Of a stretch of DNA of 17,114 bases, positions 10,077 through 16,978 are shown piece by piece. Both the position numbers and the translations under genes were made by a program. The DNA lies in contig CAYHBD010000032.1 of NCBI GenBank assembly GCA_964354805.1, positions 1 through 17,114 on the forward strand. The letters run 5' to 3'. Position 1 is the stretch's first letter; each line of letters opens with the position of its first letter. The DNA comes from an uncultured archaeon. GTDB taxonomy: Archaea > Iainarchaeota > Iainarchaeia > Iainarchaeales > GCA-2688035. The notes beneath the pieces were generated by a model. That model did not search any database. It had not been told where the DNA came from and saw only the letters and a program-made list of their open reading frames with translations.

Positions 10077-10946
10077 TTAAACAATTACTTTCTGCAGGCT
10101 GTATTCAAGAATGTCTTCCGCGCCAGCCTTTTTGATTTTTGGTATAATTTCCCTTACCCTCTTTTTGTCCACTGCAACCTTTATTGCATACCCGCTTTCT
10201 CCATAAAGCTCGCTCACTGTCGGGCTTTTCATGCAGGGAAGCACTTTTATCAGCCTTTCAAAGTTTTCCTTTGAAACATTCATTTCAAGCAAAACCTTCT
10301 GCTCAGCCAAAAGCACGCCCTGCAGCAGGGCATTTATTTCTTTTATTTTTTCTCTTTTCCAGTTGTTTTCCCATGCCTGCTTGTTTGCAATCAGCACAGT
10401 GCTTGAGCGCAGCAGCTCGCCAATTATTCTCAGCTTGTTTGCCTTAAGCGAAGCCCCTGTTTCAGTCAATTCAACGATTGCATCAACAAGCAAAGGGCAC
10501 TTTGTTTCAGTTGCACCCCAGCTGAACTCGACTTTTGCGTTTACCCTGTTCTTGCGCAGGTAGCTTTTCGTTACCTGGACAAGCTCTGTTGCAATCCTTT
10601 TTCCCTCAAGACCTTTAACTGAACGAATCTTTGAATCCCTGTTCACTGCCAGCACCCATCTTACATTCCTGTTTGTTTTCTTTGCATACCGCAGCTCTGC
10701 AATTTCCTTTACCCTTGCTTTTGTTTCAATGCACCAGTCCCTGCCTGTTATGCTGGCATCTATCACGCCGTCCTCAACAAAGCGCGGCATTTCTTGGGCC
10801 CTGGCCATCATCAGTTGAATGCTGTTATCGTCTATTGAAGGGAAATAGCTTCTGCCATTAATGTTTATCTCAAACCCTGCCTTTTTGAACAGGTCCAGTG
10901 TCTTCTCTTCAAGGCTTCCTTTCGGTATCCCAAACACAAGCTTCAT
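10077..10946 (-). CDS. hisG: ATP phosphoribosyltransferase, long form
   Basis: [43 protein letters not shown] and a C-terminal regulatory domain. ATGA overlap with the hisI stop and a GGAGG SD. Confidence 0.96.
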
Positions 10947-11939
10947 TTCACAGCCTCCTTTTTGTTGAAAAAGCAACTATACGTGCCAGTATGGCACGCA
11001 TTCCCCCTTTGTTCAACCTTTAGCAAAACCGCGTCCCTGTCGCAGTCAAGCAAAATCTCTTTTACCTTCTGGCAATTTCCAGATGTTGCCCCTTTTTGCC
11101 AAATGCATTGCCTGCTTCTGCTCCAGTATGTTGCCTTGCCTGTTTCAATTGTTCTTTCCAATGATTCCCTGTTCATGAAAGCAAGCATCAGCACTCTGCC
11201 ACTGCTTTCATCCTGTGCAATCGCTGGAACTAGGCCTTTTCCTTTTGCAAAATCCACTGAATTGAATTCCATTATTTCTTGCAAGGAAATTTTTCCGCTG
11301 TAAAAAGCCATTCCAAGCACGCTGTCAAACCCTAAATTCTCCAGTGCAATGATTTCCCGCATGCTGCTTATGCCTCCTGCAAAGCTTTTCCTGTTGCTTG
11401 TTAACCCGCTTAATTCCTTTGCAAAAGCCGTGTTTGTCCCGCTCAGCATGCCCTCCTTTTCAATGCAGGTGAAAAGGAATTCCGAGCAATATGGCTCCAA
11501 TTCTTTCACCAAGTCAAGTGCATTTCTCCCTGTATTTTCTGTCCAGCCTTTTGCCATTACTTCTCCCTCCCAAGAATCAACTGCAGCGATGAAGGCAATC
11601 CCTCCCAAATTCTTTGCTCAGGCTTTGAAGGAACCCTTTGTCAGCTTTTGTGCCGATTATTATTTTTTTTGCACCCCATCCAAGCACTTGCCCTGCCTTC
11701 TTTATGCTTCTTATGCCTCCGCCAACCCTTGCATTTACAACAGCGCAGATTTCTTTGATTGCTTCGCTGTTATCGCCCTTGCCCATGGCGGCGTCTAAGT
11801 CAATCACTTGGACGGCAGGCAACGAAGACAAGGTCTGAGCAAAACGCACTGGCTCTTCTTCCAGCTGCAGCTGTTTCTCCTTTCCCTGCCTTAGCTGCAC
11901 AATTTTTCCATTCATCAAATCAATGCTTGCTATTATCAT
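10943..11939 (-). CDS. hisA: HisA-HisI fusion of about 331 aa, interrupted by a +1 frameshift at about 11588-11594
   Basis: Frame 0 (11939-11577) gives the HisA N-half ([34 protein letters not shown]). The +1 frame gives IAAVDS...KGW...EGMLSG...AGGI and then HisI ([34 protein letters not shown]). Joined product reads EFGRDCL-IAAVDS. Confidence 0.9.
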
Positions 11940-12752
11940 TGTAACACCTCCAATCCTTTGCTTTTCAAATATTCTTTCACCTGCTTAACAGTGAATTTTC
12001 CATAGTGGAAAACGCTTGCTCCCAAAACAGCGCTTGCTTTCCCTTCAGACAGAACCGTATACATGTCTTCAAGGCTGCCTGCACCGCCTGATGCAATCAC
12101 TGGAATTGCAACAGCCTGGCTTATTGCTTTGGTTAAAGCAATGTCAAACCCCTGCTGGGTTCCATCCTTGTCTATTGAAGTGAGCAGAATGCTGCCTGCG
12201 CCAAGTTTCTCAACAGTTTGCGCCCACTCAATTGCATCCAAGCCAGTATTTTTGCTCCCTGCGTTTATGAAGACATTCCATTTGTTTCCAACCTTCTGCG
12301 CGTCAATTGCTGAAACAACGGCGCTTTTGCCGAGTTTTTGCGAAAGCTGCTGCAGTAACCCCGGTTTCTTCACTGCTGCGCTGTTTACGCCTATTTTTGC
12401 TGCCCCTGCTTGAATCAATCCCTTGGCTTCTGCAACGCTTCTGATTCCTCCACCGATTGTTAGTGGAACAGTGCATGCAGCAGCTATTCTTTTCACTGCC
12501 GCAATCCTTGTTTTTCTTCGTTCCACTGTTGCATTGATGTCCAATACGACTATTTCATCTGCCTCCTGTGCGCAGTATTTTAGCACTTGTTGCACTGGAT
12601 CTCCGACCTTTTCCACATTCCTGAATTTCTTTCCCTTCACCAATTCAATCTTTCCATTGCTCAGATTGCAGTCCAAGCAAGGAATGACTTTCTTTATTTC
12701 TCTTTTGGTGAAGTCGCTCACCTTTTACACTTATGTCTATGTTTGAATTCAT
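11936..12752 (-). CDS. hisF: Imidazole glycerol phosphate synthase cyclase subunit; start is either ATG 12752 with a +1 frameshift or the SD-less GTG 12721
   Basis: VIPCLD, GDPV, ADEIVVLDI, GGGIRS, SAIDA, LLTSIDKDGT..GFD, IASGGAG, ASVFHY. The perfect SD GGAGGTGA (12759-12766) serves ATG 12752, whose frame ends after 35 aa at 12645. Confidence 0.93.
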
Positions 12753-12770
12753 CTTGATTCACCTCCAGAA

Positions 12771-12785
12771 TCAGTGATGATGAAG
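12771..12785 (-). promoter_or_regulatory. CTT CAT CAT CAC TGA (Leu-His-His-His-stop) element directly upstream of the hisF SD
   Basis: Read directly on the minus strand, 4 nt before GGAGGTGA. No canonical in-frame start codon between it and tRNA-His. Confidence 0.5.
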
Positions 12786-12811
12786 TAAACCACTTATAGA
12801 ATTAGTTTGAG

Positions 12812-12920
12812 GGCCGGTACCGGGAGTCGAACCCGGGCCTAAGGCTCGCTGTAGCTTTTGCGAGCTTTTTTCTAAAAAGCTCCCACAGGCCTCAATGCTA
12901 GCCACTACACCATACCAGCC
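12812..12920 (-). tRNA. tRNA-His(GTG) with encoded G-1 and a 36 nt intron at position 37/38 (12847-12882)
   Basis: G-1:C73, acceptor GCTGGTA/TACCGGC, anticodon stem GAGGC/GCCTT, T arm CCGGG-TTCGACT-CCCGG. Canonical BHB: central helix CTGT/ACAG, bulges GG|G and CG|A, intron helix AGCTTTT/AAAAGCT. Confidence 0.95.
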
Positions 12921-12923
12921 ATT

Positions 12924-13116
12924 CGCCGACACGCCCGGCGGGTTCGGGTCCGATTGCCTTACGGCAATCCGACGAGCTCGCCTTTCGGCTCGCATTCGCA
13001 GCCCTTCGGCAAAGCCTTTTTTGCTTTCGCAAAAAAGCCTCCTTGCAAAACCTTCGGTTTTGCGAGGTCCCGCAAAAGCAAAGCTTTTGCAGGATGGGAA
13101 AAAAAGCCTCTCGGCT
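12924..13116 (-). other. Dense hairpin array abutting the tRNA-His 5' end (structured leader, ncRNA or palindromic element)
   Basis: Hairpins at 12924-12940, 12952-12969, 12980-12989, 13017-13036, 13041-13067, 13068-13094 and 13105-13116. Four have GNRA loops on the minus strand (GTAA, GAAA, GAAA, GAGA). Confidence 0.6.
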
Positions 13117-13268
13117 GCTTTAGAATTAATTTTAAAGTAATTAAATTTGTTTCTGTTCTGGCAGCTACTTAAATCAAAAGAAAAAGTTTCATTGAATGTG
13201 AAGTAACTCACTTATCATAGCTGTCAATAAGATTTATGGGCGTATTTGTTTTAAAAACCCTTGCCTGT

Positions 13269-13592
13269 TCATCTGGCTCTTGCAATTGCCTCAACTTTCT
13301 TTGGCGCTGTTTCTTCAATCATTCTTGCTTCGAACCGCAGGATGTCTTTTACCATCGGGCTTTTAGTGTTTAATGTAAACAGTTTTGTGTTTCCAAAAGT
13401 CCTTGTGACCCTGATTAAGTCAAGTTCCTGCAGCTTGTGCCAGTGCTTGAATAGGGCGCCCTTGCTCACGCCTGCAAGCTGCTGCACTTCCTTTTTGCTG
13501 TATTCCCCGCCAATATTGTCAATGAATGTGTCAAGAATTCTAATAAACGGGTTGTCTCCAAAAAATCGAACAAGATTTGTTTCCTCGCGCAT
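13269..13592 (-). CDS. Small winged helix-turn-helix protein
   Basis: FGDNPFIRILD...YSKKEVQQLAGVSKGALFKHWHKLQELDLIRVTRTFGNTKLFTLN gives an HTH plus wing pattern. Confidence 0.75.
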   Translation of the reverse strand: MREETNLVRFFGDNPFIRILDTFIDNIGGEYSKKEVQQLAGVSKGALFKHWHKLQELDLIRVTRTFGNTKLFTLNTKSPMVKDILRFEARMIEETAPKKVEAIARAR

Positions 13593-13769
13593 ATTCCGTC
13601 AATTAACTTGCCAAAGGCAAGTCTGTAAAAAACTTACTTTTAAGGTCCATTCAAATAGACTCTTTGATTCGCCAAAAAGAAGGTTGAAAGAGCAGTTAAA
13701 TAAAACAAGCAATTTAAAATTTAAAGGCTTCTTAATATTAATTATAAAATCGTTTTTTGGGTGTTTTGT

Positions 13770-15116
13770 GTGAAGCTTTGGCAGAAGGGAACTGTTTCTT
13801 TGGACAAGAGGATTGAGCGATTTAATGTCGGCAGGGACACTAAGCTTGACCAGCATTTGGTTCAGTTTGACTGCATTGCCTCAATGGCGCATGCAAAAAT
13901 GCTGCAAAAGACCGGGATTTTGAGCGGAGCTGAATTCAAGAGATTGCGAAAGCAGCTTGCTGCAATAATTGAATTGGATAAAAAGGACAGATTTGAGCTG
14001 CAGCAGGAAGACGAGGATGTTCACACAAAGATTGAGAATTTTTTAACAGAAAAATTGGGCGATTTGGGCAAAAAGATTCATACCTGCAGAAGCAGAAACG
14101 ACCAGGTTTTGGTTGATTTGCGTTTGTACAGCAAAAGGCAGCTGCTCTTGATAATAAGAGATTTGGCGCAATTGTGTTCCAATCTGCTCAAGCTGGCTGA
14201 AAGGAATGAATTTGTTGCAATGCCAGGCTACACTCATACAAGGCCTGCAATGCCTTCTTCGGTTGGCTTGTGGATTGCCAGCTTTGTTGAATCCCTTTTG
14301 GATGACCTGCAGCTGCTTTGGTGTGCTTTTGATTTGAATGACCAGAACCCTTTGGGTAGCGCTGCAGGCTATGGCGTTGGCCTGCCTATTGACAGGGCTT
14401 TGACAACCAAGCTGCTTGGCTTCGACAGATTGCAGAACAATGTTTTGTATGTGCAGACCAGCAGGGGAAAGATCGAGTCAGTTATTCTGGGAGCTTTGCT
14501 GCAGGTAAGCGTTGATTTGGGAAGGCTTGCTAGTGATTTGATTTTGTTCAGTTCGCCTGAATTCAATTTCGTTTCATTGCCTGAACAGTTTTGCACTGGG
14601 AGCAGCATTATGCCCCAGAAGAAAAACCCTGATGTCCTTGAGTTAATTAGGGCAAAAACAGCTGCAATGCTGGGCTACTTCATCCAGACAATTGATACAA
14701 TCAAGAGCATGTACAGCGGCTACCACAGGGATTTGCAGCTGACAAAAGAGCCTTTGATGAATGGATTGCATCTTGCAAGGGAATGCATTGACATTTTCTC
14801 GCTTATCATAGAAAAGCTGCAGGTGAATAAAAGCGCTGCTATTAGAGGCTGTTCTCGTGAATTGTTTGCTGCTGACAAGGCGCTTGAGTTAGCCCAAAGG
14901 GGCCTGCCTTTCAGGGATGCTTACAGGGTTATTTCCGAAAGCAAATTTGATTTTGTTGTCGATGCGGTTGAGAACATCAAGAGGAAAAAGCATTTGGGTG
15001 CGACAGGAAACCTTGGATTGCGTAAATTAAGGGGCCTGATTGCAGAGCAGAAGCGGAAAGTGCAGAAGGAAAAGAATGCGTTTGAAAAAAAGATGAATGC
15101 TGTTCTGCGCTTGTAA
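13770..15116 (+). CDS. argH: Argininosuccinate lyase
   Basis: KLW, EDVHTKIE, IHTCRSRNDQV, MPGYTH, PLGSAAGYG, TGSSIMPQKKNPD..ELIR, GYHRDLQ. Start GTG 13770 (or 13761). Confidence 0.97.
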   Translation: MKLWQKGTVSLDKRIERFNVGRDTKLDQHLVQFDCIASMAHAKMLQKTGILSGAEFKRLRKQLAAIIELDKKDRFELQQEDEDVHTKIENFLTEKLGDLGKKIHTCRSRNDQVLVDLRLYSKRQLLLIIRDLAQLCSNLLKLAERNEFVAMPGYTHTRPAMPSSVGLWIASFVESLLDDLQLLWCAFDLNDQNPLGSAAGYGVGLPIDRALTTKLLGFDRLQNNVLYVQTSRGKIESVILGALLQVSVDLGRLASDLILFSSPEFNFVSLPEQFCTGSSIMPQKKNPDVLELIRAKTAAMLGYFIQTIDTIKSMYSGYHRDLQLTKEPLMNGLHLARECIDIFSLIIEKLQVNKSAAIRGCSRELFAADKALELAQRGLPFRDAYRVISESKFDFVVDAVENIKRKKHLGATGNLGLRKLRGLIAEQKRKVQKEKNAFEKKMNAVLRL

Positions 15117-15290
15117 TTTGATTTGAAATTTGGTTGTTTGAAGGAAAGAATTGCAGGGCGCTTGTAATTTTATTTGGTTTTTTTTAAAGAAAGAATTGTA
15201 TGTGCTGTAATTTTTTTTGGGTTGGTTTGGGATTTGGTTTTTTGAAATAAAGAATTGCAGTGTGTTATAATTTTTTTCAGGAGAATTGCA
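15107..15290. repeat. Four degenerate tandem units filling the argH-RSH intergenic region
   Basis: Units begin gcgcttgtaattt (15107, 15158), gtgctgtaattt (15202) and gtgttataattt (15262). Each ends in agaattgya and the first three contain atttggtt. Confidence 0.75.
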
Positions 15291-16978
15291 TGGAGAAGCG
15301 TTCTGATAATGAATTGAAAAAATTGCTTGCGATTGTCAAAAAGAATTACCCTGACTGTGATTCTGCACTAATTCAGAACGCTTTTTTGTTTGCAAAAAAG
15401 GCCCACAGGTATCAAAGAAGAGAGTCCAAACAGCCTTTTTTTATTCATCCTGTTGCAACAGCATTCATTTTGGCTGAGCTAGGGGCTGATAGCAAAACAG
15501 TTGCGGCTGCTTTGCTGCATGATGTTCTGGAGGACACCAAGACAAGCCCAAAACAACTTCGTTCCCTGTTTGGCGCCGATGTTTTAAGGCTTGTTCAGGG
15601 CGTTACCAAATTGAGTAAGCTTGCAGAGCAAAAGCAGAGTGCAAGGGCAGCAGCGAACCTGCAGCATTTGCTGCTTGCGACAACAAAAGAACCCAGGGTT
15701 ATTGTAATAAAGCTTGCTGACAAGCTGCATAACCTGAGAACACTGCGCTTTCTGCCAAGCGAGGACAGGCACAGGATTGCTGCTGAGGCATTGGCTGTGT
15801 ATGCTCCAATTGCTTTAAAGTTGGGCATTCATGCTTTGTATAATGAAATGAGTGGTTTGGCTTTCAAATATTTGAAGCCAGAGATTTACAGCAGTTTGAA
15901 AAGAAGCGTTATAAAAAAAGAGAAAGCAAAGCGGCCTGAAATCAATGCAATGATTGGCATAATCAAGAAGAAAGTTGGCAAGAGCTTTTTGTTCAGCATT
16001 GATGAGAAAACGTTTTTCGCTATTTATTCAAAAATGCAGACAAAGGAGAAAAGCTTGGATGAGGTGCCTGACACACTTGTTTTGAAAATCATTGCGCCAA
16101 CAGTTGCTGACTGCTATTGCCTTCTTGGAACACTGCACAGCCTTTTCACACCCCTGCCTGGAAAAATAAAGGACTACATTGCTTTGCCCCAGCCTAACCT
16201 GTACCAGGCGCTGCATTCAACTGTTCTTGGCCCAAAAGGAACCCCTATGAAGATTCGGATTGCCACAAAAGAGATGCAGGAAATAACAAAAAAAGGAATC
16301 ATTGCTTTCTGGCAGCTGCAAAGCAAGGGAACAGACAAGCTGCTGCACAAAAACATTGCGCTGCTTGCAAAGTTAATGAGCAAAAGCGCTGCTGCCGGAA
16401 ACGAGGATTTTGTCGATGCCCTGAAATCGGATTTTCTGGCAAAAACAATAACTGTTTTTTCAGCAGACGGTGAAGCGATTGAGTTGCCAGCTGGCGCTAC
16501 TCCTATTGATTTCGCGTTTCACTTTGATAAAAAGAGCGCTTTGAGGCTTTGGGAGGTGAAGGTTAATGGAAAATTTGTTTCCCTTTCAAGAAAGCTTGAA
16601 AGCGGTGACATTGTTGAAACAATTTCCTCAAGCGAAGTGCAGGTAAAGGAATCATGGCTGCATTCTGTGAAAAGCTTTGCGGCAAAAAAAGCAATCAAGG
16701 CCTTTTTGCGCTCGCAGCGCGCTTTATGGAAACAAATGCCATCGATTGATTTAAATGTTGAAGTAAACGATGTTGTCGGCGTGCTTGCTGCAATCAGCAG
16801 GGCACTTAGCAGCAATGGAATCGACATCAGGGCAGCGTCGGTTGGAACAATGCCAAACGCAAAATCAGAATGCCACTTCAACCTGGAATTCCCAAGCGCT
16901 GAAAAATTAAGGAAAACAATGGATAAAATAAAGAAAATAAAAGACGTGAAATCAGTAGAGATAATTTACAGGGAATAA
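15290..16978 (+). CDS. Long RelA/SpoT homologue (HD hydrolase, degenerate synthetase, TGS, ACT)
   Basis: AHRYQRR, FIHP, LLHDVLEDT, IKLADKLHN, KDYIALP..YQALHST, LPAGATPIDFA, KVNGKFV, and C-terminal ACT EVNDVVGVLAAI. SD-like AGGAG before ATG 15290. Confidence 0.92.
   Translation: MEKRSDNELKKLLAIVKKNYPDCDSALIQNAFLFAKKAHRYQRRESKQPFFIHPVATAFILAELGADSKTVAAALLHDVLEDTKTSPKQLRSLFGADVLRLVQGVTKLSKLAEQKQSARAAANLQHLLLATTKEPRVIVIKLADKLHNLRTLRFLPSEDRHRIAAEALAVYAPIALKLGIHALYNEMSGLAFKYLKPEIYSSLKRSVIKKEKAKRPEINAMIGIIKKKVGKSFLFSIDEKTFFAIYSKMQTKEKSLDEVPDTLVLKIIAPTVADCYCLLGTLHSLFTPLPGKIKDYIALPQPNLYQALHSTVLGPKGTPMKIRIATKEMQEITKKGIIAFWQLQSKGTDKLLHKNIALLAKLMSKSAAAGNEDFVDALKSDFLAKTITVFSADGEAIELPAGATPIDFAFHFDKKSALRLWEVKVNGKFVSLSRKLESGDIVETISSSEVQVKESWLHSVKSFAAKKAIKAFLRSQRALWKQMPSIDLNVEVNDVVGVLAAISRALSSNGIDIRAASVGTMPNAKSECHFNLEFPSAEKLRKTMDKIKKIKDVKSVEIIYRE

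Follow-up and report, generated by a model that had tools for sequence, protein, structure and literature searches.

Genomic setting and gene content of the locus

The window analysed here, a stretch of 17,114 nucleotides, is contig C32 of a 1.38-Mb genome (G000) that is 88.5% complete. The HisS protein encoded on it has its nearest relatives in Candidatus Iainarchaeum and other Diapherotrites records; hence, the DNA comes from a DPANN archaeon within the Iainarchaeota. On its minus strand, the window carries tRNA-His, hisF, hisA-hisI, hisG and hisS, of which the protein-coding genes are arranged as follows (site numbers refer to the sequence motifs described below):

11936 to 12712, minus strand: hisF, in the +1 frame after site 3, open for 258 codons from 12712 to 11936
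11577 to 11939, minus strand: 5' half of hisA in the zero frame, joined to hisF by an ATGA overlap and ending 5 codons past site 4
10943 to 11593, minus strand: 3' half of hisA fused to hisI, in the +1 frame
10077 to 10946, minus strand: hisG, ATGA-coupled, with 0 His codons
8787 to 10043, minus strand: hisS (histidine-tRNA ligase), with its own Shine-Dalgarno (SD) sequence and 0 His codons in 418

Pairing energies of SD sequences were computed against the 3' end of the genome's own 16S rRNA, located on contig C38, and amounted to -13.2 kcal/mol for hisA, -10.1 kcal/mol for hisG and -9.9 kcal/mol for hisS. The proteins of the operon contain 2 His residues in about 1,300, where about 20 would be expected. 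hisD, hisB, hisH and hisE found no match in this 88.5% complete genome; the his gene order of a relative (G009) is complete (hisD-C-N-B-H-F-A/I-G-S). Elsewhere in the window, a long archaeal RelA/SpoT homologue (HD, RelA_SpoT, TGS and ACT domains; window 15260-16978) adjoins argH, and an ORF of 107 residues (window 13269-13592), which appears HTH-like by eye and has no Pfam match, lies upstream of the operon promoter.

A conserved frame break in the leader of hisF

The initial annotation had placed a strong ribosome-binding site and an out-of-frame ATG ahead of hisF and had proposed that HisF is reached by a +1 shift at CTT-CAC. The SD, the 6-nt spacing, the ATG and the 35-residue leader are all present in the minus-strand sequence:

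12759 to 12766, minus strand: leader SD GGAGGTGA, pairing at -15.2 kcal/mol with the genome's own anti-SD (the strongest of the cluster), 6 nt before ATG 12752
12645 to 12752, minus strand: leader ORF of 35 codons, whose zero frame stops at TGA 12647-12645 if no shift occurs
12708 to 12724, minus strand: site 3, read from the sequence, with internal SD AGGTGA, E-site codon CGA, P-site codon CTT and A-site codon CAC

Codon 14 of the leader is CTT (12713-12711) and the next one is CAC (12710-12708). The SD-like AGGTGA ends 4 nt before CTT, as noted before, and pairs at -8.5 kcal/mol. The HisF frame opens just 4 codons ahead of the shifted codon. It is closed by a TAA two codons upstream of GTG 12721, and this GTG, already judged to be without a convincing SD, pairs at only -1.9 kcal/mol compared to -15.2 kcal/mol at ATG 12752. 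A contig from another, unrelated groundwater sample (X2 record 14) covers 12620-12825 with 9 substitutions and 0 gaps; the frame break at site 3 is therefore biological and not an assembly slip.

The DNA search over the 23 genomes of the family and the follow-up of leaders brought to light the conservation that the initial annotation had named as a check: an SD, an ATG and 13 codons together with [AG]GT-G[AG]N-NNA-[CG]TT-CAY occur in 9 genomes from 8 genera. These genomes are kin and counts are not independent. The leader is free of indels in 9/9 genomes, more than chance would give: the P-site codon, at position 14, always lies 39 nt from the ATG. The length is thus constant, although the amino acids drift. 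In each of the nine, the shifted-frame product is the first his gene, namely hisF, hisD (G009, G005, G012 and G003) or a hisG-hisE fusion (G004, G010, G011 and G018), which supports the proposed +1 shift into HisF. A TAG directly before the shifted codon shuts the +1 frame in G005 and G003 and thereby rules out a GTG start in both. A GTG start thus cannot be the general route into the gene; in G005, full-length HisD (Pfam 9-410) has its first possible start at codon 15, with a weak SD. In the window's genome, GTG 12721 (product MSDFTK) is in frame with hisF and could leak and provide basal HisF. Intact HisD or HisG-HisE lies behind the frame break in the complete operons of G009, G005, G004 and G010. 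Taken together, we consider a programmed shift at site 3 highly probable.

The initial +1 residues of hisF are similar to those with which HisD begins in G005 and G012, and they are joined in frame to HisF. Given this resemblance and the missing hisD, we infer that a deletion fused the cassette, i.e. leader and shift site, to hisF with retention of the frame. Following from the lack of matches to hisD, hisB, hisH and hisE, HisF of this genome may be a remnant, whose role may mainly be to relay ribosomes towards hisS. Deletions in the remnant operons L016, L092 (G003) and L091 (G012) left a HisD fragment behind the cassette, and hisF of G003 is devoid of the N-terminal catalytic motif.

An open reading frame through tRNA-His

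A related motif precedes the tRNA gene at the promoter-proximal end of the operon:

13249 to 13257, minus strand: TATA-like box, recognised by sequence, about 30 nt upstream of the site-1 ATG
13189 to 13218, minus strand: site 1, a 9-codon mini-ORF with AGT GAG TTA CTT CAC (P-site CTT 13203-13201, His codon 13200-13198)
12771 to 13202, minus strand: +1 frame after site 1, stop-free for 143 codons through a hairpin array and tRNA-His with its intron, with no His codon before site 2
12812 to 12919, minus strand: tRNA-His(GUG) with a 36-nt intron (about 12882-12847), the sole tRNA-His found in the genome

A search without intron mode reads the tRNA gene as Ser, an artefact that disappears in an intron-aware search, which gives His. 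The site-1 mRNA would probably be leaderless or carry a very short 5' UTR; similar T/A boxes are located upstream of the Cys, Trp and Pro cassettes described below.

The site-1 motif was found in more than 40 genomes of the order. For a test of the frame, 41 loci from at least 12 families were picked by the motif alone; close relatives among them are not independent. The +1 frame is open across tRNA-His in 37/41 loci, with about 2 expected from shuffled spacers, and frame +2 in only 1/41. Exceptions are the 4/41 loci in which the +1 frame stops before the tRNA, one of them having an ATGA restart. The spacers behind site 1 range from 58 to 1,226 nt, the +1 frame terminates either inside a second site or on the hisS ATG, give or take a few bases, and further His codons are kept out of the +1 tracks. 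Each tRNA-His intron at these loci has a length divisible by 3 (9/9), compared to about 9/21 of the other tRNA introns in the window's genome.

A search starting from the tRNA and not employing the motif yielded 12 more loci with variant sites, including the complete genome GW2011_AR10. In these variants the P-site codon is CTT, GTT or ATT and parts of the SD vary as well. All three codons are decoded by G34-A35 tRNAs able to re-pair on UUC; for GTT and ATT, re-pairing in the +1 frame leaves a first-position mismatch. With the patterns employed for this motif, and these only, no match was detected in the 19 genomes of other orders of the phylum, and the same patterns gave none upstream of hisS loci outside the Iainarchaeota. 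Pattern matches that were out of frame or inside long ORFs were set aside as background (G054, G166, G049, G147, G143, G138, G156, G157, G074, G025, G116, G046, G183 and G187).

The hairpin array (window 12920-13140) looks mobile and sits within the stop-free +1 track. In contigs of close strains its length differs by a net -105, -3 and +102 nt, each divisible by 3, values that are approximate due to small gaps nearby. LAGLIDADG-like ORFs lie between site 1 and tRNA-His in four loci (L270:3990-5303 of G045, L217, L198 and L209); that of G045 is in the +1 frame, which is open for 438 codons through the tRNA. A tandem pair of tRNA-His genes with a second site between them follows site 1 in L142 (G040).

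Four sites in series

The operon contains four such sites, or gates; three copies of the motif lie in the leader region and one within hisA. The hisF site of the initial annotation is real, but it is only one gate of four, and the Cys, Trp and Pro versions had gone unmentioned.

12771 to 12794, minus strand: site 2, AGT GGT TTA CTT CAT followed by two further His codons and a stop; it lies in the +1 frame of site 1
12749 to 12784, minus strand: +1 frame after site 2, 11 codons, its TGA overlapping ATG 12752 (ATGA coupling)
11589 to 11603, minus strand: site 4 within hisA, AGG GAT TGC CTT CAT, internal SD pairing at -12.6 kcal/mol

The leader at site 2 thus reads His-His-His. The +1 stop of site 2 overlaps the leader ATG in 8 genomes. 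Pairing of the internal SD is weak at sites 1 and 2 (-3.9 and -4.9 kcal/mol, respectively). hisA is also broken at CTT-CAT in G009 and G001, and three contigs cross the hisA break at site 4 with no gaps.

In the window's genome a hairpin is predicted between site 2 and the leader SD, with the SD unpaired at 0.30 compared to 0.99 without the arm. The structure is not conserved among the orthologues and may be a local possibility for hiding the SD. The hisA break (window 11577-11608) coincides with the half-barrel boundary, and a TTG without SD at the break could start the second half on its own. In three relatives (G018, G007 and G014), the +1 frame at site 2 leads into an Asp/Glu racemase-family gene with 0 His codons (L098:1847-2593, L153:5124-5831 and L154), a candidate histidine racemase or related enzyme of histidine metabolism.

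Versions for cysteine, tryptophan and proline

A loose scan of the window's genome gave about 60 matches, of which only three combine a TATA-like box with the AGTGAG consensus: the His version at tRNA-His, a Cys version at cysK/tRNA-Cys and a Trp version at tRNA-Trp. In the Cys cassette (G000 C28:54196-55260; L272/L273), the site at C28:54196 consists of a Cys codon followed by a stop. Its +1 frame encodes a 68-residue HTH protein, ATGA-coupled to cysK, which itself contains 0 Cys, and tRNA-Cys comes next; the HTH product is a possible regulator whose synthesis would be confined to Cys shortage. Relatives with a Cys version are G003, G010 and G006. The Trp cassette (G000 C2:29594-29863) precedes tRNA-Trp, and its +1 frame stops about 70 nt short of the tRNA; generally, the +1 frame ends before or inside the tRNA at the Trp tRNA loci. 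A Trp version is found ahead of tRNA-Trp in G012, G017 and G019 (by anticodon also in G015 and G109) and leads at +1 into trpE in G004 and G018. Pro versions stand ahead of tRNA-Pro in G011, G023, G037, G043 and G047 and lead at +1 into proC in G069, G070 and G071, with ornithine aminotransferase (rocD) next; loci with tRNA-Pro pairs or proC-rocD are L315, L348, L352, L374-L376 and L379.

The codons for His, Cys, Trp and Pro all begin with C or U, as re-pairing of a G34-A35 tRNA after NUU demands. Among the genomes searched with strict patterns, which looser forms could escape, versions for Tyr, Phe, Ser, Gln, Arg, Leu or a stop codon did not turn up in convincing form, and there is no cassette at argH in the window. 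Several candidates were rejected: a match at carA (C22) is due to chance, the gene having its own strong SD and a GTG start; the second Cys sites in G010 and G006 are in fact SD and TTG starts of cysK; and the second Cys site in G003 leads nowhere. G074 (L351) carries a Leu codon at the same position ahead of tRNA-Pro and is perhaps degenerate. In G013 (L279:1575-2624), two Trp-type sites lie ahead of an FAD oxidoreductase gene with 0 Trp codons.

Proposed mechanism

Starting from the observed frames, their conservation and the match between codon and locus, we propose a programmed, prfB-like +1 frameshift at a hungry codon that senses charged tRNA-His, and regard this as likely; slippage, its rise upon starvation, its stimulation by the SD and the effect downstream are the inferred parts of the model. 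At site 3, ribosomes would start at ATG 12752 and arrive at CTT-CAC, where the GGTGA upstream could base-pair with the anti-SD of the 16S rRNA immediately past the E-site codon, as in the geometry of bacterial prfB. With ample His-tRNA, CAC would be decoded and the ribosome would terminate in the dead frame within a few codons. With scarce His-tRNA, the A site would stay empty and tRNA-Leu(GAG), which is present in the genome, could slip off CUU onto UUC, a move that retains A35:U and adds G34:C, so that HisF is made. On a single transcription unit, four of these gates would follow one another (ahead of tRNA-His, behind it, ahead of hisF and within hisA); joined by stop-start overlaps, they would allow starved ribosomes to proceed across the pre-tRNA, on into the his genes and in the direction of hisS. 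The cassette would be modular, with its A-site codon swapped to Cys, Trp or Pro ahead of the matching tRNA or enzyme.

At sites 3 and 4 and at proC, trpE and hisD, the shift would be needed for the protein. As neither site 1 nor the tRNA loci for Trp and Pro encode a conserved protein, the output there is probably ribosome occupancy, which might act by coupling to the next start and/or by shielding T-rich nascent RNA from termination, cleavage or processing. Since the sole tRNA-His and the essential hisS both lie downstream of the gates, a basal leak or independent starts would be required, and as every gene downstream is preceded by an SD of its own, strict multiplication of the gates is not required.

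Alternative explanations

The +1 shift could be real and proceed at a fixed rate, yielding low constitutive expression without any sensing of amino acids, a reading we regard as unlikely. It would suit the need of the essential hisS and tRNA-His for steady output. It may also draw on the codon usage of ordinary ORFs in the whole genome (G000), in which CTT before C-starting codons is depleted up to about sixfold: CTT makes up 4.7% of Leu-His pairs compared to 23% overall and is equally low before Gln and Arg-CGN, with Pro less depleted. This depletion could reflect slip avoidance or codon-pair bias, and the avoided CTT-C context is perhaps slippery in itself. A fixed rate, however, leaves the codon match (His/his, Cys/cysK, Trp/trpE, Pro/proC) without a reason and offers none for the exclusion of further His codons from the +1 tracks.

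Alternatively, no change of frame might occur and hisF might start at GTG 12721, with the leader stalling at its His codon or coupling in the manner of a stalling-type attenuator. Every RGTGA brings with it a +1-frame GTG, and in 7/9 orthologues this GTG shares the frame of the gene, yet we judge this explanation improbable: the TAG closes the GTG not only in G003 and G005 but also in many copies of site 1, variants with AGGGAT, AGGAAT or GGCGAG are without a GTG, and SD pairing ahead of the GTG is in every case either absent or between -0.3 and -2.5. Moreover, a ribosome stalled at CAC would cover the GTG, and stalling would leave the stop-free +1 frame across tRNA-His and the break in hisA unexplained.

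That the motif serves a transcription factor as a palindromic DNA operator (GTGA-N6-TCAC), with the frames arising by coincidence, seems very improbable. Three copies in the locus do form a 4-bp inverted repeat and a small HTH-like ORF is located upstream, but the arms vary independently with 0 compensatory pairs, variants of the left arm break the symmetry while TTCAY persists, and the right arm becomes TGY, TGG or CCN according to the neighbouring genes. The motif is, moreover, locked to the frame, the ATG being in frame with it in most matches and the +1 frame being open in the 37/41 loci described above. A decaying operon or an assembly error, with the leader left over from the start of hisD and the break due to mutation, is scarcely credible for the site itself, as the same break precedes intact HisD and HisG-HisE in the complete operons of four relatives and independent contigs are gap-free at sites 3 and 4, although decay may yet apply to whether HisF is of use to this genome, given the incomplete his set here and the broken remnants in G003 and G012.

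Comparison with known systems

The cassette closely resembles prfB (encoding RF2), a bacterial autoregulatory +1 frameshift (PMC12421855, PMC5009743): both have a short zero-frame leader, an internal SD-like sequence and a CUU in the P site, and the cassette would share +1 re-pairing, a slow A-site codon as sensor and a product that relieves the sensed shortage. In prfB, the slippery CTTT follows three nucleotides after the internal SD (PMC12421855); the distance is 4 nt here and 3 nt in GGTGAT variants, and the re-pairable P-site codon is CTT, followed by C, here and CTT, GTT or ATT across the loci. In place of the in-frame UGA and the RF2 gene, however, we found CAC or CAT in the A site and hisF, hisD or hisG behind it. 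Further differences are the sense codon in the A site (His, Cys, Trp or Pro), re-pairing on UUC for His and Pro, the use of the GGUGAU part of the archaeal anti-SD, the arrangement of gates in series, targets in tRNA supply, tRNA synthetases and biosynthesis, and the archaeal host.

With a sense codon in place of a stop, the pause should come from scarce charged tRNA. Shifting when the A-site aminoacyl-tRNA is scarce is known as the hungry-codon effect, for which a 2016 review knew no starvation-specific functional product (PMC5009743). The CUU-AGG-C sites of yeast Ty1, ABP140 and EST3 are similar in that a P-site tRNA-Leu on CUU slips +1 next to a scarce A-site tRNA, but they depend on a constitutively rare tRNA (PMC5009743). 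Frameshifts in the leader ORFs of ermCL and E. coli pheL likewise let ribosomes proceed towards the downstream gene; ermCL, however, senses an antibiotic (a ketolide), and shifting in pheL was judged incidental (PMC5009743). Neither is a conserved, codon-matched cassette. Among archaea, Saccharolobus fucA1 is a chromosomal gene with a programmed frameshift, which differs in its -1 direction, in its heptamer with stem-loop and in lacking amino-acid feedback (PMC8211752); according to a 2021 review, it is the sole case reported for a cellular gene of archaea (PMC8211752).

Codon-swappable specificity and the readout of tRNA charging would be shared with hisL/trpL attenuators and T-boxes, from which the cassette would differ in that its output is a change of frame and one control codon is enough. 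In these attenuators and T-boxes, a cognate leader codon reports tRNA charging and controls genes for biosynthesis or aminoacyl-tRNA synthetases, and T-box specificity can be swapped by the codon. As in hisL, cognate codons stand in the leader upstream of the his genes (sites 1-3), but our searches revealed no Rfam leader match, no minus-strand terminator and no conserved fold beyond 4-bp stems that could act as terminator or antiterminator. Rfam matches at E<=1 over 12500-13800 comprised only tRNA, with no stem I, specifier loop or T-box bulge, and no homopolymer run of about 8 or more A/T, as expected for transcriptional slippage, occurs at sites 1-4. The cassette would work in the manner of prfB, but it belongs to none of the three classes of prfB sites, hisL attenuators and T-boxes.

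Implications

A literature search, with most subscription papers outside its scope, returned no description of an amino-acid-sensing cassette of this kind. New here are the chain of four gates, the frame test with 37/41 open loci and the occurrence of one cassette in His, Cys, Trp and Pro forms, three of them in a single genome; the four codon versions serve as built-in controls, which makes the proposal directly testable. If true, it would represent a +1 programmed frameshift on an archaeal chromosome and a natural amino-acid-sensing frameshift. It would also imply that archaeal ribosomes undergo SD-stimulated slippage and that a tRNA gene is under selection for an open reading frame, and his, proC and trpE genes in these genomes would have been mis-started or miscalled as pseudogenes.

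In a broader view, to which we lean with less assurance, Iainarchaeota would employ a codon-swappable +1 cassette as a counterpart of T-boxes and attenuators that acts through the ribosome and covers at least His, Cys, Trp and Pro. The His gates would be chained, so that starved ribosomes translate through pre-tRNA-His and its intron, and the tRNA gene would double as an mRNA linking tRNA output, synthetase and biosynthesis to charging. If so, the cassette would provide one answer to how regulator-poor archaea with small genomes adjust their supply of amino acids and tRNAs.
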